A stretch of 64,000 bases of DNA from Acidobacteriota bacterium (GCA_003170135.1 PMZR01000140.1:4382-68381), one strand, 5' to 3'; shown: positions 22,254-64,000, counted from the first letter of the stretch. Translations and numbers: made by a program. The notes: generated by a model from the sequence alone, not told the origin.

Positions 22254-22256
22254 TAC

Positions 22257-24145: not shown

Positions 24146-24196
24146 GGCGTTCTCCGGGATCGGGGGCAGGGGCGTGCGGGGGCGAGAATACCATAG

Positions 24197-28061: not shown

Positions 28062-28066
28062 GAACG

Positions 28067-28163: not shown

Positions 28164-28184
28164 CCTGTCACTCCGTCCACTTCT

Positions 28185-37504: not shown

Positions 37505-37586
37505 GCGTCACCTTTTGAATGGCGGGGGCCCGAACAGGAAATACCACGACCGGTGGCGAGGATGCAAATGGGGGCAGGCGGGGCAG

Positions 37587-37662
37587 GTGCGGGGTGCGGT
37601 GTGCGACGTGCAGGGTGCGACGTGCGAAATGCGGAGTGCGCCGTCGAGGTGCGAAGTGCGAC
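37587..37662 (+). repeat. heptamer tandem array GTGCGNN (about 11 units, single arm)
   Basis: gtgcggg gtgcggt gtgcgac gtgcagg gtgcgac gtgcgaa atgcgga gtgcgcc gtcgag gtgcgaa gtgcgac. Confidence 0.9.
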
Positions 37663-37895
37663 GTCCCGGAGCCCGCGGTCCCGTGCGAACCGGGCCACCG
37701 GCGAGAGCCGTAGAGTCAGGGCAAGCGGCAGGCGTCGAAACCTGCGGCGGAGGCCACCGGGCACCATGGCGTGGGGATGGGGGCGACACCGAAGTCACCA
37801 CCCCGCGCCGTTCGCCGATCGATGAGCCGACGTCGCAGGTTTGCCGGGGACTGGGCTCGAGCGGTGGCCCGGCTCGCGCGGGACCGGTCCGCTGC

Positions 37896-37923
37896 GTGCA
37901 AAGTGCAATGTGCGACGTGCTGT
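37896..37923 (+). repeat. heptamer tandem array GTGCAAN/GTGCGAC (4 units), same orientation as 37587
   Basis: gtgcaaa gtgcaat gtgcgac gtgctgt. Confidence 0.8.
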
Positions 37924-39818: not shown

Positions 39819-39833
39819 TCGGCTAGTCGCACC

Positions 39834-39875
39834 AAGGACCAAGGACCAAGGACCAGGGACCAGGGACCAGAGACC
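39834..39875 (+). repeat. heptamer tandem array AAGGACC/AGGGACC (6 units) ending at the next start codon
   Basis: aaggacc aaggacc aaggacc agggacc agggacc agagacc, followed directly by ATG 39876. Confidence 0.95.
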
Positions 39876-41126
39876 ATGCCCATCGACACACTGTTCCTCG
39901 ACGCGGGCGGCGTCCTGGTGTTTCCGAACTGGGCGCGGGTGAGCGAGGTGCTGGCGCGTCACGGCGTCCGCGCCGATGCGCACGCGCTGGCCGCAGCCGA
40001 GCCGCACGTCAAGCGCCAGATCGACGTCGCCGACATCATCTCGACGACCGATGACAAGCAGCGCGGCTGGCGATACTTCGACTTGATCTTCGAACGGATC
40101 GGCGTCCCGTCGAGCGACGCCACCGCTGCGGCCGTAGGCGAGCTCTACCAGTATCACCAGGCGCTGAATCTGTGGGAATGCGTGCCCGAGACGGTCGAGG
40201 CGCGGCTGCGTGACCTCCGACGGCTCGGACTGCGCCTGGCGGTTGTGTCGAACGCGAACGGCCGGTTGGGCGTGGTGTTCGAGCGCCTGGGCCTCGCGAA
40301 GTACTTCGACTGCCTGATCGATTCGTTCCACGAGGGCGTCGAGAAGCCCGATCCGCGGCTGTTCGAGATCGCCTTGTCGCGCTGCGGCGCACGCGCCGAG
40401 CGCACCCTTCACGTCGGGGATCTCTATCACGTGGACGTCGTCGGCGCTCGGGCCGCGGGGCTCTCGGCGGTGCTGTTCGACGCCGCGGATCTCTATGGGG
40501 ACGTCGACTGTCCCCGCGTGCGATCGCTCGAAGACCTCGTCCGGATGCTCGGTGGGGCAGGTGGGGGCCCCGCCATCCAGGAGAAGCCCGAACGCGTGCC
40601 GTATCGTGTTACCGATCTGGCGGCGTCCTACGATCCGATCCGCACGCTGCCTGTCGCGGTGGTGCTCGACAACGTGCGCAGCGCCTACAACGTCGGCGCG
40701 TTTTTTCGGACGGCCGACGGCGTCCGGGCGGAGAAGCTATACCTGTGCGGGTTCACCGCGCGGCCGCCGCACGCAATGGTCGCCAAGACCGCGCTCGGTG
40801 CCGAGGCCTCGGTCGCCTGGCAGGGCGAGAGCGAGGCGGTTGAGATCATCCGCGCGCTGACGTCCCGTGGCTACGAGATTGCGGCCATCGAGACCAGCCT
40901 GCAAGCGGTGGATTTGTTCGAGTGGCGTCCGGCCTTCCCGGTCTGCGTCGTCTTCGGGCACGAAGTGGACGGCCTGCCACCGAAGATCCTCGACACGTGC
41001 GACGCCCGCATCCGCATACCCATGCTCGGTTCGAAGCACTCGCTCAATGTCGCCACGGCCGGGGGCGTGGTGCTCTACGAACTGCTCCGCAAATACCGGC
41101 TGCTCGGTGGCAGGGATGGCGGGTAG
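39876..41126 (+). CDS. HAD-superfamily hydrolase fused to a SpoU/TrmH-family RNA 2'-O-methyltransferase
   Basis: N-terminal DAGGVL (DxD-type motif I), VVSNANG, EKPDPRLF and GDLYHVDVVGA. C-terminal VLDNVRSAYNVGAFFRTAD, VFGHEVDGL and SLNVATAGGVVLYE SPOUT motifs. Confidence 0.8.
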   Translation: MPIDTLFLDAGGVLVFPNWARVSEVLARHGVRADAHALAAAEPHVKRQIDVADIISTTDDKQRGWRYFDLIFERIGVPSSDATAAAVGELYQYHQALNLWECVPETVEARLRDLRRLGLRLAVVSNANGRLGVVFERLGLAKYFDCLIDSFHEGVEKPDPRLFEIALSRCGARAERTLHVGDLYHVDVVGARAAGLSAVLFDAADLYGDVDCPRVRSLEDLVRMLGGAGGGPAIQEKPERVPYRVTDLAASYDPIRTLPVAVVLDNVRSAYNVGAFFRTADGVRAEKLYLCGFTARPPHAMVAKTALGAEASVAWQGESEAVEIIRALTSRGYEIAAIETSLQAVDLFEWRPAFPVCVVFGHEVDGLPPKILDTCDARIRIPMLGSKHSLNVATAGGVVLYELLRKYRLLGGRDGG

Positions 41127-44359: not shown

Positions 44360-46105
44360 ATGAAAACGACCGCATCTGAACCTCTGCACCCCGACGGGCC
44401 CGGCCCGGTGCCGGACACCGCGCCGCCGCTCGACTTCATCCGCGAAATCGTCGCCGAGGACGTCGGCAGCGGCAAGCACGGCGGCCGCGTCGCCACGCGC
44501 TTCCCGCCCGAGCCGAACGGCTACCTGCACATCGGGCATGCGAAGTCGATCTGCCTGAATTTCGGCGTCGCGCAGGAGTTCGGCGGCACCTGCAACCTGC
44601 GCTTCGACGACACCAACCCGGCCAAGGAAGACGTCGAGTACGTCGATTCCATCATCGACAGTGTCCGCTGGCTCGGCTTCGACTGGGGCGATCGCCTCTT
44701 CCACGCCTCCGATTACTTCGACACGATCTACGAGTACACCGTCCAGCTGATCACGGACGGCAAGGCATACGTCGACGACCAGTCGGCCGACCAGATCCGC
44801 GAACACCGCGGCACGCTGACCGAGCCCGGGCGCGAGAGCCCGTGGCGCAACCGTCCGGTCGAGGAGAACCTCGACCTGTTCGCGCGGATGAAGGCGGGTG
44901 AGTTCGCGGACGGCGAAAAGGTGCTGCGGGCGAAGATCGACATGGCGTCGCCGAACTTCAACCTGCGCGACCCGGTCCTTTATCGCATCCGTCATGCGAC
45001 GCACCACCGTACGGGCGACACGTGGTGCATTTACCCGATGTACGACAACACCCACGCGATCTCCGACGCGCTCGAGGGGATCACCCACTCGCTCTGCACG
45101 CTCGAGTTCGAGGATCACCGCCCCCTCTACGACTGGGTCATCGAGAATTGCCCGGTGCCGAGTCGGCCGCGCCAGATCGAGTTCGCGCGGCTGAACCTCA
45201 CCTACACCGTGATGAGCAAGCGCAAGCTGCTCGAACTGGTGCAGCGCGGCGACGTCTCGGGGTGGGACGACCCGCGCATGCCGACGCTCGTGGGGCTGCG
45301 GCGTCGCGGCTTCACCCCCGAGTCGATCCGGACCTTCGCGGCGCGGATCGGCGTGGCCAAGCGCGAGAACCTGGTGGACGTGGCGCTGCTCGAAGACGCG
45401 GTGCGGGAGGATCTGAACCGGCGGGCGCCGCGCGTCCTCGCCGTCCTGCGTCCGCTGCGCGTCGTGATCGAGAACTACCCGGAAGGGCAGGTGGAACAGG
45501 TCGAGCTCGCGAACAACCCGGAGGACCCCTCGTCCGGGACGCGGAAGGTCCCGTTCTCGCGCGTCCTCTACATCGAGCAGGACGATTTCCGCGAGCAGCC
45601 GCCACCGAAGTTCCACCGCCTCGCGCCCGGGCGCGAAGTGCGGCTGCGCGGCACCTACTTCATCACGTGCACGGGCGCCGTGAAGGATGCCGCGGGTTGC
45701 ATCACCGAGCTGCGGTGCACCTACGATCCCGCCACGCGGGCGGGCTCCGCGCCAGATGGCCGCAAGGTGAAGGGGACGATTCACTGGGTGGCGGCCGACC
45801 ACGCGCTCGACGCGGAAGTGCGCCTCTACGATCGGCTGTTCACGGTGCCGAACCCGGCCGACGACAAGAGCGGCCGCGATTACAAGGAGTTCCTCAACCC
45901 GGCTTCGCTGGACGTGCTCTCCGGCTGTCGTGTCGAACCGAGCCTGGCGGCGGCCGCCGCCGGCGATCGTGTCCAGTTCGAGCGGCTCGGCTACTTCGCG
46001 GTCGATCCCGATTCGTCCGCCGACCGGCTTGTGTTCAATCGGACCGTCACGTTGCGCGACACGTGGGCCCGGATTGAAGAGGCGCAGAAGAAAGAGAAAC
46101 GATAG
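44360..46105 (+). CDS. glnS: glutamine--tRNA ligase
   Basis: [16 protein letters not shown] (HIGH) and VMSKRKL (KMSKS). Overall GlnRS pattern NLRFDDTNP and YDW. Confidence 0.93.
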
Positions 46106-46131
46106 TCCGGAGTCCGCAGTCCGCAGTCCGA
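46104..46131 (+). repeat. heptamer tandem array AGTCCGN (4 units) overlapping the glnS stop
   Basis: agtccgg agtccgc agtccgc agtccga. The TAG stop is at 46103-46105. Confidence 0.9.
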
Positions 46132-46280
46132 GGCTACCCGCCGCTGGTCAGGCGAGGTTTCAGCCTGGCCAGGTTGGTAGAGCGAGGCTTCCCGCCTCCG
46201 CGCGCAGCCATCACGCCGGCGCGTTACGGCGAGGACACGCCGGAGCACGGCGAAGGCGGGCACCCTTGTCAGACCGGCGC

Positions 46281-46315
46281 GTCGGGCATCGGGCATCGGA
46301 CATCGGACGACAGCG
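46281..46315 (+). repeat. heptamer tandem array (G/A)TCGGGC / ATCGGAC (5 units)
   Basis: gtcgggc atcgggc atcgggc atcggac atcggac. Ends 10 nt before the lpxD ATG. Confidence 0.9.
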
Positions 46316-52160: not shown

Positions 52161-53453
52161 ATGGACGAGTACCGGCGCAAGGTCGTCGGCGCCGACGAAG
52201 CCGTGTCGCACATCGAGTCGGGCCAGCGGCTGTTCTTCACCGGGAACTGCTCCATGCCGGCGCAGACGCTGGCGGCCCTGGTGAAGCGTGCCGCCACGCT
52301 GACCAACGTCGAGATCGTGCACGTCCTGACGATCGGGACCGACAGCTACGTCGCGCCCGAGATGGACGGGCACCTGCGCGTCAACACGCTGTTCATCAGC
52401 GACAACGTCCGCCGGGCGGTCAACGAGGGCCGGGCCGATTTCACGCCCGTCTTCCTGTCGGAGATCCCGGCGCTGTTCAAGAACGGGCAGCTGCCGCTCG
52501 ACGTGGCCGTCATTCACGTCACCCCGCCCGACGAGCACGGCTTCTGCTCGTTCGGCGTCGAGGTGAGCGTGACGAAGCCGGCGGCGCAGGCGGCGCGCCT
52601 GGTCATCGCGGAAGTGAACGCGCAGATGCCGCGCACGCTCGGCGACTCGTTCATCCACGTGTCGAAGCTCGACTACATCGTCCCGGTCGATTACCCGCTC
52701 ACCGAGATGCGGATGGGCGAGCCGGCGGGGCTGGCCCAGTGCATCGCCACCCACATCGCGCGGCTGATCCCCGACGGCGCCACGCTGCAGACCGGCATCG
52801 GCGCGATCCCCGACGCGGTCCTGCACCAGCTTGGCACGCACCAGCACCTGGGCATTCATACGGAGCTCTTTTCCGACGGCGTGATCGACCTGGTGGAGAA
52901 GGGCGTCATCGACGGCGAGCGCAAGTCGCTGCACCCGGGCAAGGTGATCTCCAGCTTCATGATCGGCACCAAGCGTCTCTACGATTTCGTGCACGACAAT
53001 CCGATCATCGAGATGCACCCGAGCGAATACACCAACGACCCGTTCATCGTCGCGCAGAACGACCGGATGGTGGCCATCAACTCCGCCATCGAGGTGGATC
53101 TGACCGGCCAGGTGTGCTCCGACAGCATCGGGACGCGGTTCTACAGCGGCGTGGGCGGGCAGGTGGATTTCATCTACGGGGCGTCGCGCAGCAAGGGAGG
53201 CGTGCCGATCATCGCGTTGCCGGCGACGGCGACGGTCAAGGGAGAGACGATCAGCAAGATCGTGCCGACGCTGAAGGTCGGGGCGGGCGTCGTGACGACG
53301 CGCAACCACGTGCACTACGTGGTGACCGAGCACGGCGCGGCCGACCTGTACGCGAAGACCATTCGCCAGCGCGCCCGCGCGCTCATCGACATCGCCGCGC
53401 CCGAGTTCCGCGCGGAACTCGAGGAGCAGGCGATCAGACTCAGGTATCTCTAG
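52161..53453 (+). CDS. acetyl-CoA hydrolase/transferase family protein (4-hydroxybutyrate CoA-transferase-like)
   Basis: LQTGIGAIPDAV, HTELFSDG and GSGGQVDF-like (YSGVGGQVDF) motifs. The start could be GTG 52152, overlapping the ald stop, or ATG 52161. Confidence 0.85.
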   Translation: MDEYRRKVVGADEAVSHIESGQRLFFTGNCSMPAQTLAALVKRAATLTNVEIVHVLTIGTDSYVAPEMDGHLRVNTLFISDNVRRAVNEGRADFTPVFLSEIPALFKNGQLPLDVAVIHVTPPDEHGFCSFGVEVSVTKPAAQAARLVIAEVNAQMPRTLGDSFIHVSKLDYIVPVDYPLTEMRMGEPAGLAQCIATHIARLIPDGATLQTGIGAIPDAVLHQLGTHQHLGIHTELFSDGVIDLVEKGVIDGERKSLHPGKVISSFMIGTKRLYDFVHDNPIIEMHPSEYTNDPFIVAQNDRMVAINSAIEVDLTGQVCSDSIGTRFYSGVGGQVDFIYGASRSKGGVPIIALPATATVKGETISKIVPTLKVGAGVVTTRNHVHYVVTEHGAADLYAKTIRQRARALIDIAAPEFRAELEEQAIRLRYL

Positions 53454-53455
53454 AT

Positions 53456-53532
53456 AGTCCGGAGTCCGGAGTCCGGAGTCAGGCCAAGGTCTAAGGCCCA
53501 AGGCCCAGGGACCAGGGACCAAGGACCAGGGA
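53456..53532 (+). repeat. composite heptamer array, 11 contiguous in-phase units of three unit types
   Basis: agtccgg x3, agtcagg, ccaaggt, ctaaggc, ccaaggc, ccaggga x2, ccaagga, ccaggga. Starts 3 nt after the TAG stop. Confidence 0.95.
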
Positions 53533-53545
53533 CTTCGTCTCCGTC

Positions 53546-54319
53546 CTATCTTGCGTGCACCACTAACCTCCCCGATTGCGGCCGGTTAAGGACGAGCGCC
53601 TTCAGCCGCTTCAAGATCGCCAGTGACGGCCGGTGCCGCACGTCCACCTGCGTGAATCCCGCAGCCGCCAGCATCTGCTTCATGCACTCGATGGTCGGGA
53701 TCGCCGTGAACTCGTAGCGGGTGCCTCGCTCGTGGCCGTCGCCCGGGAAGAAGCTGATGAGCGGGTAGCGCCCGTGCAGCGCGGGCACGAGCGCGTGCGT
53801 CTCGCAGACGAGCGTGCCGCGCGTGACGCCGCGCAGGCAATCGAGCACGTCGATGGGCGAGCGGAGGTGGTAGAGGACGCCGAGGAAGAGCACCAGGTCG
53901 AACTGGCCGATGACCTGCGGGTCCAGGTCCTCCGCGGCCAGGCGCATCGATTCGACCTTCGAGCCGAGCGCCGAGTGCGCCAGCAGGAAGCCGTCCTTGC
54001 CGTGCACGTCCCACGCGTAGGTGTCGATGGCCACGACGCGCGCCGCGCCCCGCCGCTCGCACTCGAACGAGAAGAACCCGTCCCAGGCGCCGACGTCGAG
54101 CACCGACTTGCCCGTCAGATCCTCGGGCAGCGAGAGGAACCGCAGCCGGCGGACAAACCGCTGGCGCACGTGCCACTCGGGCCGCGTCACCAGCCCGCCG
54201 CCGAGATCGATCGGATGGCACCACTTGATGGCGCGGACGCGGCGTTCGAGTTCGGCGCGGTCCACGTCCCCGCGCGGGGCTGCCCCAGCCGTTTGCTGCT
54301 CAATCATCCCGGGGAACAT
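53546..54319 (-). CDS. class I SAM-dependent methyltransferase
   Basis: VLDVGAWDGFFSF (motif I) and DLVLFLGVLYHL. Start ambiguous: TTG 54343, ATG 54319 or ATG 54307. Confidence 0.75.
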   Translation of the reverse strand: MFPGMIEQQTAGAAPRGDVDRAELERRVRAIKWCHPIDLGGGLVTRPEWHVRQRFVRRLRFLSLPEDLTGKSVLDVGAWDGFFSFECERRGAARVVAIDTYAWDVHGKDGFLLAHSALGSKVESMRLAAEDLDPQVIGQFDLVLFLGVLYHLRSPIDVLDCLRGVTRGTLVCETHALVPALHGRYPLISFFPGDGHERGTRYEFTAIPTIECMKQMLAAAGFTQVDVRHRPSLAILKRLKALVLNRPQSGRLVVHAR

Positions 54320-54388
54320 GCCATTGATTGGAGCGCGCGTCAACTCGCGGGACCGTTAACGCGGGCAGAGCAGGTTGGGCAGGCCTTC

Positions 54389-54679
54389 CTAGAGTTTTCC
54401 CCAGCCTCGCGTCAGGTAGTCGCTCAGCGACAACGCGAACAGGATGCCGACCCAGAACAGGCTCGCGCCGGCGACGACCCACGTGAGGCGCGTGCTGTAG
54501 CGCAGGTGCATGAAGAAGAGGACCACCAGCGACGCCTTCAGGACCGCGATGGTCAGCGCGACCACGGGGCTGAAGAACCCGAGGTCGAAGAACGCGACCC
54601 AGCTCGTCAGGCCGGTGAGGATGAGCAGCGCCCCGAAGACGGTGTAGTAGACGCGCAGCGGAACGATGTGTTCAGACAT
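54389..54679 (-). CDS. ctaF: cytochrome c oxidase subunit IV (caa3-type small subunit)
   Basis: 96 aa, 3 TM. HIVPLRVYYTVFGALLILT...VVLFFMHL is typical of the bacterial CoxIV/CtaF family. Last gene of the oxidase operon. Confidence 0.8.
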   Translation of the reverse strand: MSEHIVPLRVYYTVFGALLILTGLTSWVAFFDLGFFSPVVALTIAVLKASLVVLFFMHLRYSTRLTWVVAGASLFWVGILFALSLSDYLTRGWGKL

Positions 54680-54691
54680 GGATTATTCCAC

Positions 54692-54832
54692 GTGCGAAGT
54701 GCGATGTGCGACGTGCGACGTGCGACGTGCGGTGCGACGTGCGAGGTGCGGTGCGACGTGCGAGCATCCCGCACGCAGTCTGCACTCGGCACCCAGCACC
54801 GCACTTTGCACCTCGCACTCCGCACTCCGCAC
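54692..54832. repeat. inverted pair of heptamer arrays (GTGCGAN x11 / NNCGCAC-type arm) between ctaE and ctaF
   Basis: Left arm 54692-54764: gtgcgaa gtgcgat gtgcgac x3 gtgcg gtgcgac gtgcgag gtgcg gtgcgac gtgcgag. Right arm 54765-54832: ...gcactttgcacctcgcactccgcactccgcac. Confidence 0.95.
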
Positions 54833-54837
54833 AATCG

Positions 54838-55536
54838 TCACCTGTGTCGATCCACCAGGTACAACAGCGGGAACAGGAAAATCCAGATGATGTCCACGAA
54901 GTGCCAGTACAGGCCCGCCACCTCGATCGGCGTGTGCCACTTCTCGTTGAACACGTTGCGCCACGCCATGTACATCATCGTCAGGATGATGCCGAAGCCG
55001 ATGAATATGTGCAGCGCGTGCAGTCCCGTCATCGTGAAGTAGAGCGAGAAGAAGATCTGCGCGTGGTTCGGATCCGTCCCCTCGATCTGGAAGCCGTGCC
55101 CGGGAATGTGGTGGTCCAGGTACTCGTGGTAGTACTCGAGGAACTTCAGCCCGACGAAGATCACGCCGAGCAGCAGCGTCAGCCCCAGGAACCCCACAAT
55201 CCGTCCACGCCGCCCGTTGGCCGCCGCGTGCACCGCCATCGCCATCGTCAGGCTGCTCGTGATGAGGACGACCGTCATCCCCGCGCCCGAGTAGATGTTG
55301 AGCTGGCGGCTCGCGACGCCGAACGTGGACGGGTACCAGACGCGATAGAGCATGTAGGCGGCGAACAGGCCGCCGAAGAACAGCACTTCGGTCACCAGGA
55401 AGACCCACATGCCGAGCGTGGCCGCTTCGCGCTGCTGCTCCATGTCGTCGAAGTGGTGCGCAAGACGCGGATCGTGCGGGGGATGTGGCTGCCCCGCATG
55501 CGAGGGCGGCGACTGAGGGCTCGCCACTTCAGCCAA
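54838..55536 (-). CDS. ctaE: cytochrome c oxidase subunit III
   Basis: [32 protein letters not shown]...[20 protein letters not shown] start overlaps the ctaD stop. Confidence 0.9.
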
Positions 55537-57151
55537 GTTGGGCCTCCTGCTTCTCGTAGTCGTAGGCCGGGCCGGTCACAATCGGCGTCTCGTCGAAGTT
55601 GAAGGTCGGCGGCGGCGACGTCGTCTGCCACTCGAGGCCGGTGGCGCCCCAGGGGTTCGGCCCCGCGACTCTTCCGTACTTCAATGACAGCAGCAGGTAG
55701 ACGAGCGGCATCAGGTAGCCGATGCCGAGCACCGAGGCCCCTGCGGTGGACAGCACGTTGAGCGCCTGGAACTCGGGCGGATACGCGTGGTAGCGGCGCG
55801 GCATGCCCAGGTAGCCGAGGATGAACTGCGGGAAGAACGTCAGGTTGAAGCCGAGGAACACCGTGAGCGCCGCCAGCTTCGCCCAGATCTCCGGGTACAG
55901 GCGTCCCGTGATCTTCGGCCACCAGTAATGGATCGCCCCCAGGTACCCCATCAGCGCGCCGCCGACCATGATGTAGTGGAAGTGCGCGACGACGAAGTAG
56001 GTGTCGTGCACGTGCACGTCGATACCCAGCGTGGCGAGGAACAGCCCCGTGAGGCCGCCGATGGTGAAGAGGCCGATGAACCCGAACGCGTACAGCATCG
56101 GCGCGGTGAGCGAAATCGAGCCCTTGTAGAGCGTCGCCGTCCAGTTGAACACCTTGATCGCCGACGGGATGGCCACCAGGAAGCTGAGCACCGAGAAAAT
56201 CATCGCCGAGTACATCGAAATGCCGGCGACGAACATGTGGTGGCCCCAGACGAAGAAGCCGAGGACGGCGATCGCCAGGCTCGAGAAGGCCACCATCTTG
56301 TAGCCGAAGACGCTGTGGCGCGTGAAGGCCGCGACCAGTTCGCTGACCACGCCCATCGACGGCAGGATCATGATGTAGACGGCCGGGTGCGAGTAGAACC
56401 AGAACAGGTGCTGGAAGAGGAGCGGGTCGCCGCCATAGGCCGGGTTGAAAATCCCGAGGTGGAACGCGCGCTCAACCGCCACGAGCACCAGCGTGATCGC
56501 GAGCACGGGCGTGCCCAGCACGTTGATGAGGGCCGTCGCGTAGATCGACCAGAGGAACAGCGGCATCCGCATCCACGTCATGCCCGGCGCGCGCATGCGG
56601 TGGATCGTGACGATGAAATTGAGGCCCGTGAGGATCGACGAGAAGCCCGCGATGAAGACCCCGATCGCCGCGGTCAGCACGTTCGTGTTCGACGCCACCG
56701 TGCTGAACGGCGTGTAGAACGTCCAGCCGGTGTCCACGCCGCCGGTGGCGATGGCCCACAGCGTGAACGCCCCGCCCAGCACGTAGACGTACCAGCTGAG
56801 CAGGTTGATCTTCGGAAACGCCAGGTCGCGCGCGCCGATCATCATCGGCACCAGGAAATTGCCGAAGACAGCCGGAATCGACGGAATCAGGAAGAGGAAG
56901 ATCATCACGATGCCGTGCATCGTGAACAGCTTGTTGTAGGTGTCGTCCGACACGAGATCGCCCGGCGGCGTCAGCAACTCGAGGCGGATCACGCCGGCGA
57001 ACAGCGCGCCGATGCCGAAGAACACCGTGATGCTGATGAGGTACAGGATCGCAATCCGCTTGTGATCGGTCGTCAGCAGCCACGACTTGATGCCGTAGTC
57101 GGCGTTGAGGTAGTGCGTCTTCGGGAGCGCGAGCGCTTCGGGTGATTCCAT
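55529..57151 (-). CDS. ctaD: cytochrome c oxidase subunit I
   Basis: [29 protein letters not shown] and VVAHFHY haem-copper oxidase signatures. Confidence 0.95.
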
Positions 57152-57157
57152 AAGGAC

Positions 57158-58189
57158 CTACCGCTTCGGCATCGGACCCTGGGGCGGACGCGCCGGGGTC
57201 GTTTCACCCGGTCGCGGCCCCGTCGGTGCCTCGCCTTGCGGCTGGGGCGGGAGCGCCGTGGTGGCGATCGACTTGATGTACTCGATGAGCTGCAGCAACT
57301 GCTCTTCGCTGACGACGCCCTGGAACGACGGCATGATCGGCTGGAATCCCGCCACGTTCGTCCCTCCCGGCGTCAGGATGCACGTGCGCAGATAGGCTTC
57401 GTCGACCGTGGCGGCCTGGCCGTTCGCCAGCTGGACCTGGTGGCCGAACAGCCCCTGCAGCACCGGCCCGCGCCCCTGGCCATCGGATTTGTGGCAGGTC
57501 ACGCATCCGAGGTCCTGGAACAGCTTCTCGCCCGCCGACGCCATCGAGCCTTCGCCTGTCCCGCCCGCGAGCCACGTCTCATAGTCGGCCGGCGCCATGA
57601 CCACCACCTGGCCGATCATGCCGGAGTGTTTCGTGCCGCAGTATTGTGTGCAGAAGAAACGATAGGTGCCGGGCTGGGTCGGCCTGAACCAGATGGTCGT
57701 GTACCGCCCGGGCACGATGTCCGCCTTCATGCGAAACGCCGGCACGAACAGGTCGTGAATGACGTCCTCGGACGCCAGGGTCAGCTTGACGGCGCGGCCC
57801 GTGGGCACGTGCAGCTCGTCGATCTCGCGCTGGCCGCCCAGGTGCTGGAACTTGAACATCCACTGCTTGGCGACGACGTAGATGTCGAGCGTGTCGGAGG
57901 GCGGCGACCCCATCGAGAAGTACACGCCGGCGCCCCAGAAGAACATCACCATCGTCAGCAGCACGGGGATTGCCGTCCACAACACTTCGACGGCGTACCC
58001 GGCGTGGACAGGCTGGCCGATGTCGCCGCGTGCACGCTGGCGGTAGCGATAGGCGAAATACACGACCAGCGCGGCGATGAGGATGCTGAAGAAGGCGCTG
58101 ACGCCGACGAGGAAGAAGTACAACGCGTCGACGCGCCCGGCCATCGTCGAGGCGCGCTCGGGGAACACGGGGAAGAAACGCGGCCACAT
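57158..58189 (-). CDS. coxB: cytochrome c oxidase subunit II with fused C-terminal cytochrome c domain (caa3-type)
   Basis: CuA site FFCTQYCGTKHSGM and C-terminal CVTCH haem c motif. Two N-terminal TM segments. Confidence 0.92.
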   Translation of the reverse strand: MWPRFFPVFPERASTMAGRVDALYFFLVGVSAFFSILIAALVVYFAYRYRQRARGDIGQPVHAGYAVEVLWTAIPVLLTMVMFFWGAGVYFSMGSPPSDTLDIYVVAKQWMFKFQHLGGQREIDELHVPTGRAVKLTLASEDVIHDLFVPAFRMKADIVPGRYTTIWFRPTQPGTYRFFCTQYCGTKHSGMIGQVVVMAPADYETWLAGGTGEGSMASAGEKLFQDLGCVTCHKSDGQGRGPVLQGLFGHQVQLANGQAATVDEAYLRTCILTPGGTNVAGFQPIMPSFQGVVSEEQLLQLIEYIKSIATTALPPQPQGEAPTGPRPGETTPARPPQGPMPKR

Positions 58190-58195
58190 AGTCGG

Positions 58196-59167
58196 TCACC
58201 GATCGATGCGATGTTTCACGGACTCGGGGCGCGTCGTCGCGCCCGGCTGGTCTCGGCTCGTCGCCGGCGAGCCCGGCACGTTCGGCGGCGGCTCCCCGGT
58301 CTTCGTGCGCTTGCGCTCGCGCGAGACCATGGCCACGATGAACGACCCGAGCACCACGACGGTGACGATGCCACCCAGGCGGATCACGTTCAGGACGACG
58401 AGGCCGTACTTTCCCGTCTTCGGGTCGTAGTGGTAGCAGTAGAGGAGCACGCGGTCCACGGGCGTGCCGATGCGGCCCGCGGACGCGTCCACCAGCGCCA
58501 GCCGGAGATCGCGCGGGGAATATTCGATGCCGTAGAGATACTTCGCGAGACGGCCGTCGGCGGTGGCCACCATGATGCCCGACGCGTGCGCGTAGATGCC
58601 GGTGGCCTCGTCGTAGACGTAATGGAACCCGACCGCGTCGGTGAGCGGCTTGATCGACGCGTCCTGCCCGGTCAAAAAATGCCAGGCAGATGCGGCGTCC
58701 GCGTGCCCGTAGCGCTGGATGTAGGACTTCTTCTTCCGGGCGGCGAGCTGCGGCGTCTCACGCGGATTGAAGCTGACGGTGACCAGTTCGTAGTCGCTGC
58801 CCGGGTTGAGCGACATGCCTTTCATCGCGCCCGCCAGGCCGTTCAGGACCAGCGTGCACAACATCGGACAGTCGTAGTAGACGAGCGTCAGGACGACCGG
58901 CTTCCGGTGATTGAAGTACTGGGCGAGCGTGACCGACCGTCCCGCCTCGTCTTTGAAGGGCAGGTCGAGCGGAATCTGCGCGTTCAGCCGTTGATCGAAC
59001 GCGATTTTCTGCAGGTCGGCCGGCTGCACGCCCGCCGGCAAGTCGCCCTTGGACATCATGCCGTTGGCCGGAACGCCGTTGTACTGCGCCAGCGCGCCCG
59101 CCGGCCACGCGAGCGCGGCGGCGAGAACGAGTCCACAGAGCGCCGCTTTCATGGTCCTGTCCTTCAT
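58196..59167 (-). CDS. SCO1/SenC family copper chaperone with C-terminal TM anchor
   Basis: VLTLVYYDCPMLCT (CxxxC) plus a downstream conserved His region. ATG 59167 overlaps the upstream stop (ATGA). It is only the last third of the 912-aa ORF in the track. Confidence 0.85.
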   Translation of the reverse strand: MKDRTMKAALCGLVLAAALAWPAGALAQYNGVPANGMMSKGDLPAGVQPADLQKIAFDQRLNAQIPLDLPFKDEAGRSVTLAQYFNHRKPVVLTLVYYDCPMLCTLVLNGLAGAMKGMSLNPGSDYELVTVSFNPRETPQLAARKKKSYIQRYGHADAASAWHFLTGQDASIKPLTDAVGFHYVYDEATGIYAHASGIMVATADGRLAKYLYGIEYSPRDLRLALVDASAGRIGTPVDRVLLYCYHYDPKTGKYGLVVLNVIRLGGIVTVVVLGSFIVAMVSRERKRTKTGEPPPNVPGSPATSRDQPGATTRPESVKHRIDR

Positions 59168-59640
59168 CGCGTCATCGGCGGCTCGGGCCCCTTCGCGGGG
59201 CTCGAGCCCTCCGGCGCATTCGCCGTGCCCGGCGCCGCAGGCCCGGCCACCGGGAATCCCTGCTGCATCACCTGGTTCATCGCCTGCCAGATCGGGATGC
59301 GCACGGCGCCGGCCTGCTGGTTGACCCAGGTGTAGGAGTTCAGCAAGTCGTCTTCCTGCCTCCGAAGCGCCTTGAGGTCTTCGCGGGGCTTCAATTGCAG
59401 GCGCGGGCTGGGCGGCAGGCGGAGCTCGCCGCCCCTCTGCGCGATCGGGTACTCGCTCACCTGCGTGCTCGTCTCCTGGTGTCGATAGAAGCCGAACAAC
59501 AGCCAGACCACCAGACAGATCACGATCCCCGCGACGACGAGCGAGGCGCCAAAGCCGACGATGACGCGAATGTCGATGTCGCGCCCCTCGTGGCCGACCG
59601 CGGGGTCGTCGACGCCTGAACCGTGCGGTGTGTCGTTCAT
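59164..59640 (-). CDS. single-TM membrane protein of the ACIII/oxidase operon (possibly ActG-like)
   Basis: One TM (VIVGFGASLVVAGIVICLVVWLLFGF). Positioned between actF and SCO. ATG 59640 is chosen because upstream codons are heptamer repeat. Confidence 0.55.
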   Translation of the reverse strand: MNDTPHGSGVDDPAVGHEGRDIDIRVIVGFGASLVVAGIVICLVVWLLFGFYRHQETSTQVSEYPIAQRGGELRLPPSPRLQLKPREDLKALRRQEDDLLNSYTWVNQQAGAVRIPIWQAMNQVMQQGFPVAGPAAPGTANAPEGSSPAKGPEPPMTR

Positions 59641-59685
59641 GCCAAAGCCAAGGCCCAAGGCCGAAAGCCGAAAGCCGAAAGCCCT
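59641..59685. repeat. heptamer-type array GCCAAA/GCCCAAG/GCCGAAA (7 units) exactly filling the actF to next-gene gap
   Basis: gccaaa gccaag gcccaag gccgaaa gccgaaa gccgaaa gccctc. Confidence 0.9.
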
Positions 59686-60867
59686 CTAGTGTCTCTTCAG
59701 CGCGTTCGCCAGCTCCAGAGAATCGTGCAGCGGCAGCAACGGCCGGCTCGCCAGCTGCCACGCAAAAACGCTGACGAACAGTCCGCCGACGGCGATCGTC
59801 GTCGCGAAATCCTGCCAGCTCACCACCAGGCGCCCCTGGTGCGTTTCGGGCGCCACCATCCAGAACAGATCCAGCAGCCGCATGAACAGCAACAGGACCA
59901 CGACCGCGCGCAGCACCGGCAGGGCCCGCTTGGTCCGCCGCATGAGCAGCAGCACGAACGGCACGAAGAAATGGAACACGGCGAGCGTGAGAGCGATCCA
60001 CTGCCAGCCGACGCCCAGCCGGTGCACGTACCAGGGGATCTCCTCCGGCAGGTTGCCGGCCCAGATGAGCAGCAGCTGCGAGAACGACGTGTAGGCCCAT
60101 AGCATGACGAAGGCCAGCACCATGTTGCCGACGTCCCGCATCGTTGTGACGCGCAGCAGCGTCGAGAACGGGGCATCGCGCGACAGCTGGACGAGCACGA
60201 GGGTGGCGAACGCTAGCGCGCTCAATCCCTGGCCCGTCATGAAGATCATCCCGAAGATCGTGGAGTACCAATGCGGCTCGAGCGACATTACCCAGTCGAT
60301 CGTAGCAAACGTGATCGTGAAGGCGTAGAGGACGAGCCCGGGTGCCGCGAGGCGCCCGAGGCGGCGGAAGTAGGTCGGATCGCCCGTTCGATCGTTCTCC
60401 CGCGACCAGTGATTGACCAGGAAGGCCAGCAGCAGCCAGGCGGCGAAGTAGATGAGGGCGCGCACGACGAAGAACGGCACGTTCAGGTAGAGCGCCTTTG
60501 CCCGGATCGTCGCGTCCACGCCCGGCAGCGTCCAGGGATACAGCCAGTGCAGGCCCAGGAGAATCGGCAGGAAGAGAATGGCCATGAGCGGCAGCGTGCG
60601 CGTGGCGGCTTCGAGCGGGCGCCGCATGACGAACGCCCACACGCCGCCGGTCAGGTACTGCATCATCGCGATGGCCAGCGAGCCGAGCGCCACGCCCAGC
60701 CAGAACATGAAGGCCATCAGGTACGAGTGGAAGAACTGGTTCGGGTCGGCCATCGCGCCGGCGACGCAGGCGGCGGCGCCGACCAGGCCGACGACGAGCC
60801 CGGTGGTCCGGGCCCGCTGCAATCCCGCCGGAGGCGCGACGTTGAGGTCGAGGAGGTCGTCGTTCAC
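59686..60867 (-). CDS. actF: Alternative Complex III subunit ActF (NrfD-like membrane subunit 2)
   Basis: 393 aa, about 10 TM. Position after actE in the conserved actABCDEF order. GTG start. Confidence 0.75.
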   Translation of the reverse strand: MNDDLLDLNVAPPAGLQRARTTGLVVGLVGAAACVAGAMADPNQFFHSYLMAFMFWLGVALGSLAIAMMQYLTGGVWAFVMRRPLEAATRTLPLMAILFLPILLGLHWLYPWTLPGVDATIRAKALYLNVPFFVVRALIYFAAWLLLAFLVNHWSRENDRTGDPTYFRRLGRLAAPGLVLYAFTITFATIDWVMSLEPHWYSTIFGMIFMTGQGLSALAFATLVLVQLSRDAPFSTLLRVTTMRDVGNMVLAFVMLWAYTSFSQLLLIWAGNLPEEIPWYVHRLGVGWQWIALTLAVFHFFVPFVLLLMRRTKRALPVLRAVVVLLLFMRLLDLFWMVAPETHQGRLVVSWQDFATTIAVGGLFVSVFAWQLASRPLLPLHDSLELANALKRH

Positions 60868-60882
60868 AGCGCGTTACCCATC

Positions 60883-60955
60883 GTGCGAGGTGCGAGGTGC
60901 CAGCACCCGGCACACCAGCACTTCGCACGAGCACTCAGCACCCAGCACCTGGCAC
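60883..60955. repeat. inverted pair of heptamer arrays (GTGCGAG x2-3 / NNNGCAC x7) between actE and actF
   Basis: gtgcgag gtgcgag gtgccag | cacccggcacaccagcacttcgcacgagcactcagcacccagcacctggcac. Confidence 0.9.
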
Positions 60956-61542
60956 TACTTCGGCGCATCGTGGACCTCGTTGCGCTTCCCGGGCGGCACG
61001 TCGGCGATTGACGCCGCGGTGGTGGCCTGAAGCGCCCGGATGTAGGCGACGATCGCCCACCTGTCGCGGACCGGCACCTGCTGCTTGTAGTCCGGCATCG
61101 CGCCGAAGCCGTTCGTGATCACGTCGAAGAAGTGGCCCGCCGGCGCCTGCCGCAACCGGTCGACGTGCAGCGAGGGCGGCGCGCGGAACCCGCGGCGCAC
61201 GATCATCCCGTCGCCGTTGCCCGTCCGCGAATGGCACGGCGCGCAGAAGATGTCGTAGCGCTCGTGCCCGCGCGTCATGACGTCCCAGGTGACCGGGAAC
61301 GGGAACACCGTGGCAAGCTCACCGTTCACCTTGCCGGTGTACAGCACGTCGTCGCCTTCCACGTCGCCTCGCGCGACCGTCCCTTCGACGAGCGGCCGCT
61401 CCGAGCGGTGATCAGCGAAGAACTCGCTCTCCCGCAGCGGGATGTATTTCGGCTGGTCGTGCATGTCCTGCCGGCAGCCGCCAAGCGCCAGCAGTCCAAT
61501 CAGCCCGAGGCCTGCGCAGAGTCGTTCGCGGTTACGCCACAA
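60955..61542 (-). CDS. actE: Alternative Complex III subunit ActE (monohaem cytochrome c lipoprotein)
   Basis: Lipobox LALGGC and CAPCH haem-binding motif. TTG start overlaps the actD stop. Confidence 0.8.
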   Translation of the reverse strand: MWRNRERLCAGLGLIGLLALGGCRQDMHDQPKYIPLRESEFFADHRSERPLVEGTVARGDVEGDDVLYTGKVNGELATVFPFPVTWDVMTRGHERYDIFCAPCHSRTGNGDGMIVRRGFRAPPSLHVDRLRQAPAGHFFDVITNGFGAMPDYKQQVPVRDRWAIVAYIRALQATTAASIADVPPGKRNEVHDAPK

Positions 61543-62065
61543 CGTCCGACACCTCTCGCGGCGCCAGGCTCAGCAGGAACTGGCGCGTGGCGTGCGCATC
61601 GAACTTCGGATCCGCGGCTTCGATGCACAGGAAGAACCGATCGCGCGTTGCGAGCGCGAACCGCGGAACGTTGAACACCGGGTGGTAGAGCATCGGCAGC
61701 CGATTCAGCGCGAGCATGCCGAAGACCGCTGTCGCCGCGGCCAGCAGCACCGTCATCTCGAAGGTGACCGGCACGAACGCGGGCCAGCTGTTGTACGGGC
61801 GGCCGCCGACATTGAGCGGATAAGCGATGACCGCCACCCAGTACTGCAGCGCGAAGCCGGACAGGGCGCCGATGGCGCCGCCACACAGGACGAGCAGCGG
61901 CACCGCCGTGCCGTGGATGCCCAGCGCCTCGGTCAGTTCCTCGATCGGGAACGGCGCATACGCGTCCATCTGGCGGTAGCCCTCGTCGTACGCGCGGCGG
62001 GTGACGTCCACCAGCGTCTTCGGATCGTCGAATTCGGCCATCAGGCCGTATAACGGCTCGGCCAT
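61532..62065 (-). CDS. actD: Alternative Complex III subunit ActD (DUF3341-type)
   Basis: LYGLMAEFDDP..L......Y..GY...DAY.PFP N-terminal pattern plus two TM segments. ATG 62065. Confidence 0.8.
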   Translation of the reverse strand: MAEPLYGLMAEFDDPKTLVDVTRRAYDEGYRQMDAYAPFPIEELTEALGIHGTAVPLLVLCGGAIGALSGFALQYWVAVIAYPLNVGGRPYNSWPAFVPVTFEMTVLLAAATAVFGMLALNRLPMLYHPVFNVPRFALATRDRFFLCIEAADPKFDAHATRQFLLSLAPREVSDVVA

Positions 62066-62085
62066 GCTCAAACGCCTCGCGCGTC

Positions 62086-62127
62086 GTCCGGAGTCCGAGG
62101 TCCGAACTCGACACCGGACTCCGGACT
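62086..62127. repeat. inverted pair of heptamer arrays (GTCCGGA/GTCCGAG/GTCCGAA vs CCGGACT x2) between actC and actD
   Basis: gtccgga gtccgag gtccgaa ctcgaca ccggact ccggact. Confidence 0.9.
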
Positions 62128-62129
62128 CG

Positions 62130-63530
62130 CTACGTCTTCTCCGTGTGTCCGACCTGGGCCTCGGGCAGCAGCCCGCGCATCTCGAAGATCGAGATCATCG
62201 GCAGCAGCCTGATGAACAGGAACAGCAGCGTCGAAAACAGCCCGATCGTGCCGAGGAACGTGGCCCAGTCCCAGACGGTCGGGTAATACATGCCCCACGA
62301 CGAGGGGTCGAAATCGCGGTGCAGGCTCGTGACGATGATCACGAACCGCTCGAGCCACATCCCGACATTCACCACGAGTGCCACGCAGAACAACGCGAGG
62401 ACGCTCCGGCGCACCCGTTTGAACCAGAGCGACTGCGGGATGATGACGTTGGTGAGGATGAGCGCCCAGTACGCCCAGTGGTACGGCCCGAGCATCCGGT
62501 TGAGCGTCATGTAGCGCTCGAAGACGTCCGCGCTGTAGAACGACATGAACGCTTCGATCGCGTAGCCATAGGCCACGATGAGGCCCGTGGCGAGCATCAC
62601 CTTCGCCATGTTGTCGAGGTGCCGCATCGTGATGAAATCGCCCAGCCCGTAGATCGCCCGCAACGGGATGGCGAGCGCCAGCACCATGGCGAAGCCGGAG
62701 TAGATGGCGCCGGCCACGAAGTACGGCGGGAAGATCGTCGTGTGCCACCCGGGAACGATCGAGATGGCGAAGTCGAAGCTCACCACGGTGTGCACCGAGA
62801 CGACCAGCGGTGTCGCCAGGCCCGCGAGCAGCAGGTAGGCGACCTCGTAGCGCGCCCAGTGCCGTCCGGAGCCGCGCCAGCCCAGCGCCCCGATGCCGTA
62901 CAGGACGCGGCCGACCTTCGAACGCGCGCGATCGCGCAGCGCCGCCAGGTCCGGCACGAGACCGACGTACCAGAAGAGGAGCGACACCGTCAGGTAGGTG
63001 GACACCGCGAAGACATCCCAGATGAGCGGGCTGCGGAACTGCGGCCACACGGTCATCGTGTTCGGATACGGCACCAGCCAGTACGCGAGCCAGGGCCGGC
63101 CGAGGTGCAGGACCGGGAACAGTCCCGCGCACGCCACGGCGAACAGGGTCATCGCCTCGGCGAAGCGGTTGATCGACTGGCGCCACTGCTGGTGCAGGAG
63201 CAGGAGGATCGCGGAGATGAGGGTGCCCGCGTGGCCGATCCCGATCCACCAGACGAAGTTGACGATGTCGAACCCCCACGCGACCGGGATGTTGATGCCC
63301 CAGATGCCCACGCCCTTGACGAACAGATACGTGCAGGCGACGAAGAGGATCATCACGAACACGAACGACAGGGCAAAGCCGCCCAGCCAGCCGATCCCGA
63401 CGCGGTTCGTCAGGACGATCGCGCTGATCTTGTCGGTGATCGATCCGAACGTGTGGCCGGGGGCAATGACCGGCGGCTCGCCGGTCAGCTTGTCCTCGGT
63501 CGTCGTCTCGGGCACGGGGCGTTGCGCCAT
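62130..63530 (-). CDS. actC: Alternative Complex III subunit ActC (NrfD/PsrC-family quinol-interacting membrane subunit)
   Basis: 466 aa polytopic. WGINIPVAWGFDIVNFVWWIGIGHAGTLISAILL is typical of NrfD-like ActC. Confidence 0.85.
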   Translation of the reverse strand: MAQRPVPETTTEDKLTGEPPVIAPGHTFGSITDKISAIVLTNRVGIGWLGGFALSFVFVMILFVACTYLFVKGVGIWGINIPVAWGFDIVNFVWWIGIGHAGTLISAILLLLHQQWRQSINRFAEAMTLFAVACAGLFPVLHLGRPWLAYWLVPYPNTMTVWPQFRSPLIWDVFAVSTYLTVSLLFWYVGLVPDLAALRDRARSKVGRVLYGIGALGWRGSGRHWARYEVAYLLLAGLATPLVVSVHTVVSFDFAISIVPGWHTTIFPPYFVAGAIYSGFAMVLALAIPLRAIYGLGDFITMRHLDNMAKVMLATGLIVAYGYAIEAFMSFYSADVFERYMTLNRMLGPYHWAYWALILTNVIIPQSLWFKRVRRSVLALFCVALVVNVGMWLERFVIIVTSLHRDFDPSSWGMYYPTVWDWATFLGTIGLFSTLLFLFIRLLPMISIFEMRGLLPEAQVGHTEKT

Positions 63531-63571
63531 CTCGCGTTGTCCTCACATCCGGCTGAAACCGGCCTCCCGTG

Positions 63572-63593
63572 GCACAGGACTTCAGTCCTGTGC
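63572..63593. repeat. REP-like palindrome, type 2 (GCACAGGAC-TTCA-GTCCTGTGC); its loop carries the actB stop codon
   Basis: Identical to the copy at 25303-25324. The minus-strand TGA at 63582-63584 lies in the loop. Confidence 0.9.
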
Positions 63594-64000
63594 GCTCTCT
63601 TTCCCGCTGCCGGGCGGCTCGATCTCCGGATTCGGATTTCGCACCGCCGCGAGGTACGTCGTGCGCGGTCGCGTGTTCAATTCGCCCAGCAGCGCGTAGT
63701 CGCGCGGGTCGTTCTTGAGCTTCGCCACCGCGCTCGTCGTGTCGTTGATGTTGCCGAAGGTGATCGCCTGGGCCGGGCACGCCGCCTGGCACGCCGTCAG
63801 GATCTCCCCGTCCCGCACCGGCCGGTTCTCTTTTTCGGCCTCGATCTTCCCCTCGTTGATGCGCTGCACGCAGTAGGTGCACTTCTCCATGACGCCGCGG
63901 CTTCGCACCGTCACGTCGGGATTGCGCTGCATCTTCAGGCTGGGCGTTTCCCAGTCGGAGTACAGGTAGAAGTTGAACCGGCGCACCTTGTACGGGCAGT
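63582..64000 (-). CDS. actB: Alternative Complex III subunit ActB, C-terminal 4Fe-4S ferredoxin part (5' end outside the window)
   Basis: [11 protein letters not shown]...[14 protein letters not shown] iron-sulfur cluster motifs. Followed by actC. Confidence 0.8.

Follow-up and report, generated by a model that had tools for sequence, protein, structure and literature searches.

A respiratory operon for alternative complex III (ACIII) and a caa3 oxidase occupies positions 54389-64000 of a 64,000-nt stretch of Acidobacteriota bacterium DNA (GCA_003170135.1 PMZR01000140.1:4382-68381; "the window" below means this whole stretch), and four of the spacers between its genes contain blocks of tandem 7-nt units. 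Our analysis indicates that these four blocks are probably copies of heptanucleotide simple sequence repeat (SSR) arrays that occur genome- and lineage-wide, and that they are tolerated in permissive intercistronic spacers as passengers resembling repetitive extragenic palindromic (REP) elements. Most of the arrays are imperfect palindromes in which a G-rich arm is followed by a complementary C-rich arm. They are probably not a designed stoichiometry device of this operon.

Heptamer arrays in the ACIII-caa3 operon

The operon is a single minus-strand gene string in the order ActB (C-terminal part), ActC, ActD, ActE, ActF, orfX, SCO, CoxB, CtaD, CtaE and CtaF. Its four arrays are as follows.

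62086-62127, minus strand, two-armed heptamer hairpin in the ActC/ActD spacer, sense (GTCCGGN)2-GTCGAG-(NNCGGAC)3
60883-60954, minus strand, asymmetric heptamer array with hairpin in the ActE/ActF spacer, sense about eight G-rich GTGCKNN units and then three C-rich units (CTCGCAC)
59641-59685, minus strand, one-armed direct array in the ActF/orfX spacer, sense (GGCTTTC)3(GGCCTTG)2GGCTTTGGC
54692-54832, minus strand, long heptamer hairpin of the CtaE/CtaF spacer, two-armed, each arm built of GTGCGNN units

The program TRF reports period-7 arrays at all four of these sites. The ActC/ActD hairpin has arms of 17 nt that are 88% complementary (fold of -35.7 kcal/mol, z -3.5) and is followed by a GAGG Shine-Dalgarno-like motif and the ActD ATG (62065). 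The CtaE/CtaF arms are 51 nt long and 75% complementary, giving -90.6 kcal/mol in the sense strand (z -4.6) and -90.0 kcal/mol in the antisense strand (z -7.0), and the stem is itself periodic, with helices of 5-6 bp that are interrupted at unit positions 6-7 by 1-2 mismatched nt. For the ActE/ActF array the sense fold reaches -41.8 kcal/mol with a z of only -1.5, and the antisense z is -4.2. The ActF/orfX array, which occupies its whole spacer from stop codon to ATG, has no inverted repeats and a fold z of -0.7. An initial annotation of the window had located the four arrays between same-strand genes, which proved correct to within 1 nt, and had the ActF/orfX array filling its 45-nt gap exactly, as it does. 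The same annotation had described all four as hairpins; three do fold, and 59641-59685 is instead a one-armed direct array.

No U-tract lies behind any of the four arrays, and no T runs follow the hairpins. A terminator scan returned nothing at the three hairpins and only a weak 5-bp match within the one-armed array, and a promoter scan detected no promoter-like site in the operon and none at the arrays. The absence of U-tracts and of promoter-like sites agrees with the proposal of the initial annotation that these elements are not plain terminators. Searching the whole window against Rfam 15 at the gathering score gave a tRNA as the sole match, and a search of 53300-64000 with E values up to 1 gave one spurious miRNA match only.

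Several candidate identities were rejected. Intrinsic terminators were ruled out by hairpins lacking a U-tract, and membership of a REP family or of the miniature inverted-repeat transposable elements (MITEs) by the lack of a consensus, of an unpaired tag and of shared flanks. The units GTCCGNN, GTGCGNN, GGCTTTS and CAGTAGN of the window contain no G3 tract, and therefore G-quadruplexes cannot explain the arrays.

Period-7 arrays throughout the window

The window contains 17 period-7 segments, compared with 0-1 for each other period from 4 to 12. The pattern (GTSCGNN)2GTSCG, with at most one mismatch, had 54 matches where 0.73 were expected, and no more than 4 turned up in any of 100 shuffles. 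We carried out a spacer census on the 44 kb for which external gene calls were available (contigs L090/L091, 100% identical to the window, and L087). Period-7 arrays were present in 12 of the 21 spacers of at least 35 nt, with an occupancy of 4/5 inside the operon and 8/15 outside it, the latter covering a second operon and co-directional, convergent and divergent promoter gaps. All arrays in these 44 kb sit in spacers, bar one at 25653-25690. The unit varies from site to site (GTCCGNN, GTGCGNN, GTGCTNN, GGCTTTS, GGCTYAN, CAGTAGN, GTCGTTG or GACCARG), with positions 1-5 conserved and 6-7 variable, and there is no family consensus, with unit, arm length and loop all varying among copies. Arrays outside the operon include these.

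6324-6508, unstranded, two-armed CAGTAGN / CTACTGN hairpin between convergent genes
14010-14043, plus strand, one-armed (GTCCGGA)3, 6 nt past a stop codon and followed by a separate GC-rich hairpin
20574-20611, minus strand, one-armed GTGCGNN array, G-rich in the sense strand, directly after the stop of a 379-aa gene
21777-21868, minus strand, GTCCGNN hairpin in a second minus-strand gene string, flanking a 50-aa membrane-protein gene
22058-22257, minus strand, GTGCGNN hairpin in the same gene string, flanking the same gene on the other side
24194-24267, unstranded, one-armed (GTCGTTG)n in a divergent (promoter) spacer
28066-28164, plus strand, two-armed GGCTYAN / GCCYTRA hairpin between co-directional plus-strand genes
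37586-37920, unstranded, two same-orientation arrays (GTGCGNN / GTGCAAN) in a 522-nt divergent spacer, 37586-37664 being counted as the divergent-gap array
39826-39879, plus strand, one-armed (GACCARG)n filling the 57-nt thioredoxin/HAD spacer up to the ATG
46100-46313, plus strand, GTCCGNN arm over a stop codon (46100-46134) with a complementary NNCGGAC arm (46276-46313) 140 nt downstream
53451-53535, unstranded, two non-complementary arrays in a convergent spacer, (AGTCCGG)3 after a plus-strand gene and (GGTCCYT)n after a minus-strand gene

At 53451-53535 each array is G-rich in the sense of the gene that it trails, and (AGTCCGG)3 overlaps the sequence right behind the stop codon; being mutually non-complementary, the two arrays cannot form a hairpin. 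The exceptional array at 25653-25690, (GGACWCC)5, lies in the last ~12 codons of a Mur-ligase-like gene (24376-25698), and ends 6 nt before the stop; no other array in the gene-called part of the window is both in coding sequence and C-rich in the sense strand. The predicted 50-aa membrane protein between the two large heptamer hairpins (21897-22049, minus strand, MTIVTILYLALAAYAAFFMIWNF…) had no NCBIfam match.

Arrays across the Acidobacteriota

We surveyed 82 non-redundant ACIII-caa3 loci of the phylum, across which the gene order is conserved. Among their 47 array-bearing junction gaps the period was 7 in 43, 8 in 3 and 9 in 1, and of the 11 junction types 10 had arrays, whereas CoxB/CtaD had none (0/19). 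The units are genome-specific and matched to the GC content of the genome, and some relatives use GGGATTC or GGGATCA. Array-bearing loci are labeled Vicinamibacteria, Thermoanaerobaculia and Blastocatellia/Pyrinomonadaceae/Chloracidobacterium, and arrays are rare in Terriglobia-type loci. A full-text literature search found no description of such arrays in Acidobacteria, although its coverage was incomplete and the result is thus absence of evidence only.

In Blastocatellia/Pyrinomonadaceae a REP-like palindrome family, GTTTAGAGGCGGGCTACYGCCCGCC…GGCGGGCRGTAGCCCGCCTCTAAAC, is present at several junctions of the same operon with fold z values down to -12.8. It was observed in L046 (CoxB/CtaD, ActF/orfX, CtaE/CtaF) and L058 (CoxB/CtaD, CtaD/CtaE, CtaE/CtaF), and also in L042 and L057. 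The occurrence of REP-like palindromes at the same junctions suggests that the operon spacers are generally permissive and gather whichever palindromic repeat is active in the genome.

Units of other lengths were seen in L004, L075, L072, L053 and L061, where 8-nt (GACACGGA-type) or 9-nt (CGCAAAGGA, GGTGCCGCA) repeats of the same two-armed form replace the heptamers or stand beside them. Arrays can also be translated, since three heptamers make 21 nt or seven codons. In Blastocatellia-type ActE a C-rich arm, (CTGCTCA)n, is in frame and encodes the hydrophobic core and lipobox of the signal peptide (…LLLLTAHCSLLTGC|RRDMQDQ), with in-frame arrays at 6477-6520 of L046, 1888-1927 of L061 and 6273-6371 of L053. 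The charged N-region may be encoded in L053 by a G-rich arm, (CAGGAGA)n.

Placement, polarity and folding

The arrays keep close to the upstream gene. They start a median of 3 nt past the upstream stop codon (interquartile range (IQR) 0.5-15), and the median distance left to the next start is 18 nt (IQR 8.5-42.5; p=0.003 for start versus end distance). In 24 of the 27 two-armed arrays the 5' arm has more G than C (p=5e-5) and, because a palindrome is identical on both strands, this G-first polarity belongs to the element and not to the strand. All 15 one-armed arrays in operon gaps have more G than C in the sense strand (p=6e-5). Nearly all arms comprise 3-5 units, a range narrowed by the detection threshold. 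The GTCCGNN hairpins center on GTC|GAC and often begin with CGTC-GTCCG and finish with CGGAC-GACG, the CGTC being base-paired in the stem.

Sense and antisense strands fold equally well, with a mean difference of -0.38 kcal/mol (p=0.81) and G·U pairs amounting to 114/1358 and 99/1334, respectively, and there is therefore no signature of RNA-specific selection. Junction spacers free of arrays are likewise G-rich in the sense strand, with a GC skew of +0.11 versus -0.007 in coding sequence (p=5e-12), peaking in the first 30 nt after the stop, and 31% of them have a z below -2 as opposed to 5% of coding controls (p=1.5e-6).

Retention and turnover in close relatives

Exact protein look-up identified the close syntenic relatives L081, L083, L088, L093 and L092, with CoxB identities to the window of 83, 79, 77, 75 and 70%, respectively; among the matches listed by a contig scan, CoxB identity was 65% or lower. 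At ActC/ActD the GTCCGNN hairpin is present in the window, L081 and L083 with 2.5-4.5 units per arm, in each case with GAGG and the ATG behind it. L093 has a short GGCTTTG hairpin there, L092 has 163 nt of degenerate G-rich sequence and L088 has 7 nt only. At ActE/ActF a GTGCK-type hairpin (GTGCT/GTGCG family) is shared by the window, L088 and L093, L081 carries a 264-nt composite and L083 an 18-nt spacer without an array. At ActF/orfX the GGCTTTS units form a one-armed array in the window and in L083 and a two-armed one in L081; L093 retains a remnant, and L088 and L092 have lost the units, with spacers of 20 and 3 nt, respectively. The hairpin core at CtaE/CtaF is GTGCG in the window and GTCCG in L081 and L083, and this junction has 25 nt only in L088 and a non-heptameric hairpin in L092. 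An array at ActD/ActE was seen in L083 only. L088 thus lacks three of the four arrays, with spacers of 7, 20 and 25 nt, and copy numbers differ at the shared junctions among the window, L081, L083, L088 and L093. The initial annotation had looked to conservation of array presence, rather than sequence, at orthologous junctions; presence is indeed often retained (window, L081, L083), but the arrays are dispensable and turn over (L088, L092, L093).

Contigs of the window's own genome are 99.96-100% identical and differ by no indels, and L083-L086 (99.6-99.98% identical) likewise have no indels and a single substitution inside an array. The constancy of copy number at 99.6-100% identity indicates that the arrays are not contingency-type hypermutable on that timescale. 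An exact-pattern scan of metagenome contigs for further strains found none.

Two further repeats were noted in the relatives. In L081 (7125-7388 and 13687-13944) a repeated hairpin, …CTCCCGGGCTGAAGCCCGGAAGTCCCAC… and its reverse complement, accompanies heptamer arrays, with one copy in the ActE/ActF spacer and four behind CtaF. In L093 the 25-nt SCO/CoxB spacer (5148-5172) is filled by (GCCCTAA)3, reverse complement TTAGGGC, which is C-rich in the sense strand and an exception to the sense-G rule.

Genes and array-free spacers of the operon

Pfam matches were obtained for ActC/NrfD, ActD, the ActE cytochrome c, SCO, CoxB, CtaD, CtaE and CtaF/COX4_pro, and NCBIfam labeled the Fe-S part of ActB. 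ActF had no Pfam or NCBIfam match and was identified from the solved ActF chains 6lod_F (E=7.5e-87) and 6f0k_F. The ACIII plus caa3 labels first given to the operon are therefore upheld by Pfam, NCBIfam and these structures. Gene starts were fixed by external gene calls on L087, a contig 99.96% identical to the window. The genes that adjoin the three arrays on the ACIII side are listed here.

62130-63530, minus strand, ActC/NrfD (Pfam)
61532-62065, minus strand, ActD (Pfam), start at the ATG at 62065
60955-61542, minus strand, ActE cytochrome c (Pfam)
59686-60867, minus strand, ActF (solved chains)
59164-59640, minus strand, orfX, 158 aa, between ActF and SCO

The orfX product belongs to a conserved 133-160-aa open reading frame (ORF) without a Pfam or NCBIfam match, with orthologues in L081, L083, L088, L092 and L093. 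Its start codon in the window abuts the heptamer array directly and has no Shine-Dalgarno motif.

Spacers measure 51 nt at ActB/ActC, 64 nt at ActC/ActD (taking ActD from the ATG at 62065), 87 nt at ActE/ActF, 45 nt at ActF/orfX, 11 nt at orfX/SCO, 6 nt each at SCO/CoxB and CoxB/CtaD, 158 nt at CtaE/CtaF and 69 nt between CtaF and a methyltransferase gene, and ActD/ActE and CtaD/CtaE overlap by 11 and 8 nt, respectively. The claim that junctions without an array overlap or nearly abut holds for ActD/ActE, SCO/CoxB, CoxB/CtaD and CtaD/CtaE, but fails for ActB/ActC, whose 51-nt spacer has no heptamer array. The 69-nt spacer behind CtaF, the last oxidase gene, has none either.

A hairpin scan of the ActB/ActC spacer gave one non-heptameric element.

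63572-63593, minus strand, 9-bp stem-loop over the ActB stop codon, GCACAGGACT TCAG TCCTGTGC

The same stem-loop can be written GCACAGGAC-TGAA-GTCCTGTGC. Hairpins of unrelated sequence occupy this spacer in L081 (4472-4519, TAACAGGCCGTG…CACGGCCTGTTA) and L083 (4543-4597, TAATTCTTCGGCG…CGCCGAAGAATTA), and the stem-loop over the stop codon could be a conserved structure that outlasts sequence turnover. CoxB homologues place the organism among Vicinamibacterales-like Acidobacteriota. The tRNA gene of the window lies at 3088-3158 on the minus strand.

Origin and role of the arrays

How heptamer arrays might come to fill such spacers can be outlined from their form and distribution. Replication slippage, together with inverted duplication around a short palindromic center such as GTC|GAC, would create arrays at the DNA level and change their length and unit; a slippage origin has been proposed for 7-nt units and for the general excess of heptamers (PMC4679880, PMC4692102). 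As a 7-nt unit breaks the reading frame, arrays would survive only in untranslated spacers, where we see them occupying the stretch between the stop codon and the ribosome-binding region of the following gene. Within operons only non-terminating forms appear to persist, having no U-tract and transcribing the G-rich, C-poor arm first, an order that would keep C-rich RNA from being exposed unpaired and would so avoid Rho loading and polarity. Co-transcribed arrays are predicted from the computed folds to form very stable periodic hairpins. These may act in a REP-like manner as 3'-exonuclease barriers or RNase III sites, as a by-product and not by operon design, and the regularly spaced mismatches may let long palindromes remain viable as DNA while leaving the double-stranded RNA imperfect.

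The ACIII subunits are equimolar in cryo-EM structures, the gene products assembling 1:1, and the caa3 subunits are likewise equimolar, so there is no obvious need for differential dosing. Any effect on mRNA stability or processing would probably be incidental rather than tuned: such elements are generic, L088 can dispense with them, and the genes on either side encode 1:1 products. The initial annotation had suggested that the arrays tune subunit stoichiometry or act as partial attenuators. The former has against it their generic nature, the loss of three of them in L088, their spread over 10 of 11 junction types and the lack of a sense-strand folding bias, and operon-specific tuning by the arrays is unsupported; the latter is not supported either, on the same evidence of generic occupancy and loss. 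Its comparison with REP elements was apt, as REP-like palindromes occupy the same junctions in other Acidobacteriota.

Several observations weigh against reading the arrays as passengers. That they persist at ActC/ActD, ActF/orfX and CtaE/CtaF in three of four close relatives while their units turn over could be due to selection as well as to descent. Array-free junctions are unusually structured, so that a hairpin function there may be selected and arrays may be one way to supply it, and the 5-nt core that the two arms always share, while positions 6-7 drift, points to constraint on pairing or on a recognized motif. Slippage was not directly seen, as copy number did not change among contigs 99.6-100% identical, and the avoidance of Rho is something that we infer.

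We weighed whether the arrays are instead selected intercistronic RNA regulators that adjust the output of ACIII and oxidase subunits through segmental mRNA stability, processing or translational control. Such a role would fit the retention of arrays by the window, L081 and L083 at three shared junctions despite changed units and copy numbers, their position against the stop codon with GAGG and the start codon left free at ActC/ActD in these three genomes, the greater structure of array-free spacers relative to coding controls, and the non-heptameric hairpins or palindromes that L092 and L088 carry at CtaE/CtaF where the heptamer array is missing. It is nevertheless unlikely, given that 8 of 15 unrelated spacers have such elements, divergent promoter gaps included, that L088 does without three of the four and keeps short spacers, that any junction may bear an array across the phylum, that both strands fold equally well, that one of the four operon arrays forms no hairpin and that the subunits are equimolar. 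A broader version, which we hold to be somewhat more doubtful still, would make the heptamer palindromes selected lineage-wide "insulators" that fold co-transcriptionally between cistrons as periodic helices of 5-6 bp broken by loops of 1-2 nt. Their G-first polarity and stop-adjacent position would then serve to block Rho loading or exonucleases, or to recruit a dedicated RNA- or DNA-binding protein that reads heptads. In that case the 7-nt period would be a molecular ruler and not a product of polymerase slippage, and non-G-quadruplex arrays would separate the question "why seven?" from the G-quadruplex explanation offered for Xanthomonas and Nostoc.

An action at the DNA level, in which 5-bp cores at 7-bp intervals, carried by one strand in the first arm and by the other in the second, bind a nucleoid, topoisomerase or replication protein, or in which the arms form cruciforms, would accommodate the strand symmetry and equal folding, the arrays in divergent spacers that are perhaps not transcribed through, and the conservation of positions 1-5 over 6-7; three units would also span 21 bp or two helical turns. 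We regard it as very unlikely, as the many cores of one genome (GTCCG, GTGCG, GGCTT, CAGTA, GTCGT) are hard to fit to one sequence-specific protein and the strict sense-strand G bias of one-armed arrays (15/15) suggests an effect of transcription or RNA rather than of duplex DNA. Hairpins that lack a U-tract are used by some high-GC bacteria, and hairpins as stable as -36 to -91 kcal/mol might lower read-through at each junction as partial terminators or attenuators. This explanation seems highly improbable for elements that have no U-tract at any of the four sites, separate genes whose products are obligate partners in one complex, are missing from the spacer behind the last oxidase gene and include one-armed arrays, which cannot terminate. 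Least credible of all is insertion by a transposase of mobile miniature elements of the REP/RAYT or MITE type. The ends of the GTCCGNN hairpins (CGTC-GTCCG / CGGAC-GACG) do recall CGTC-tagged REPs (PMC3733652), and true REP-like families sit at the same junctions in other Acidobacteriota, but the arrays have no family consensus, with units, arm lengths and loops differing between copies, the CGTC "tag" is base-paired and not unpaired, and neither shared flanks nor target duplications were apparent. The gene calls of the 64-kb window revealed no transposase, RAYT not having been searched for genome-wide.

The passenger reading places the value of these observations in the phylum-wide rules and in the non-G-quadruplex heptamers, rather than in the respiratory operon. 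Among long SSRs in bacteria, no class is more over-represented than the heptanucleotide repeats, whose origin and role have gone unexplained since the cyanobacterial short tandemly repeated repetitive (STRR) sequences and the Xanthomonas/Nostoc study, and this lineage adds a very dense case that is unable to form G-quadruplexes and spans several classes of an abundant soil phylum. Stop-codon adjacency, the G-rich arm first and the sense-strand G-richness of one-armed arrays provide three quantitative rules for any mechanism. In practice, arrays inflate operon spacers and can mislead operon, terminator and start-codon prediction in metagenome-assembled genomes of Acidobacteriota.

Comparison with known repeat systems

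REP elements and the related BIMEs of Enterobacteria and Pseudomonas are abundant intergenic palindromes, forming stable transcribed hairpins that are not terminators and are credited with segmental mRNA stabilization; REPs are 20-40 bp units of fixed consensus whose stem measures 5-13 bp and whose GTAG or CGTC tag is unpaired, the GTAG type being linked to RAYT transposases (PMC3733652, PMC3333891). The arrays share with them the form of intergenic palindromes between cistrons or at 3' ends and the stable, non-terminating hairpins. They differ in consisting of tandem-repeat arms of variable unit and length, and neither a consensus nor an unpaired tag was found. The direct TAACTGA heptamer repeats of marine Beggiatoaceae are intergenic and many end at a start codon (PMC4679880), as do the one-armed arrays 59641-59685 and 39826-39879, which end right at the ATG. 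In contrast to the present arrays, Beggiatoaceae use a single AT-rich unit genome-wide, almost never inverted, that lies upstream of genes and not behind the preceding stop codon.

The STRR heptanucleotide repeats of Calothrix/Anabaena are described mainly as direct arrays (cited in PMC4692102), and a 2007 survey is summarized as finding heptanucleotide SSRs in general excess in bacteria (PMC4679880, PMC4692102). The likeness covers tandem 7-nt units, several types per genome, non-coding location and slippage as the proposed origin, and the palindromic two-armed form with periodic mismatches, common among the window arrays, sets these apart from STRRs. The window has the features of heptanucleotide SSRs, namely tandem 7-nt copies above chance, a non-coding position (the exceptions being 25653-25690 and the ActE signal peptides) and copy numbers that vary among relatives.

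The closest counterparts are the G-rich heptameric intergenic repeats GGGAATC of Xanthomonas and GGGGAYT of Nostoc PCC 7120, present as hundreds of arrays per genome (Rehm et al. 2015; PMC4692102). Xanthomonas campestris has 186 arrays per genome, 89-93% of them intergenic, and Xanthomonas arrays lie on average 28 nt from the upstream ORF versus 160 nt from the downstream ORF, with 70 cases of convergent inverted pairs capable of forming a stem-loop (PMC4692102). Arrays of the Xanthomonas/Nostoc type prefer the coding strand downstream of ORFs, recur at matching gene pairs of sister species with differing lengths and sequences, and include one between pecE and pecF in Nostoc; no regulatory role was found for them (PMC4692102). 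The 7-nt unit, stop-proximal intergenic placement, G-rich coding strand, G-first inverted pairs and an intra-operon example are all shared with the arrays described here, in which convergent G-first arms near the upstream ORF likewise prevail (24/27; 3 versus 18 nt). Unlike those repeats, the window units are without G-tracts and do not reach the at least three Gs per unit, over at least four units, of a G-quadruplex repeat, many unrelated unit families coexist in one genome, the density is higher (12 of 21 spacers of at least 35 nt) and the host belongs to the Acidobacteriota. The shared architecture, combined with the absence of G-quadruplexes and the many unit families, identifies these arrays as a further case of heptamer repeats, in a new phylum.

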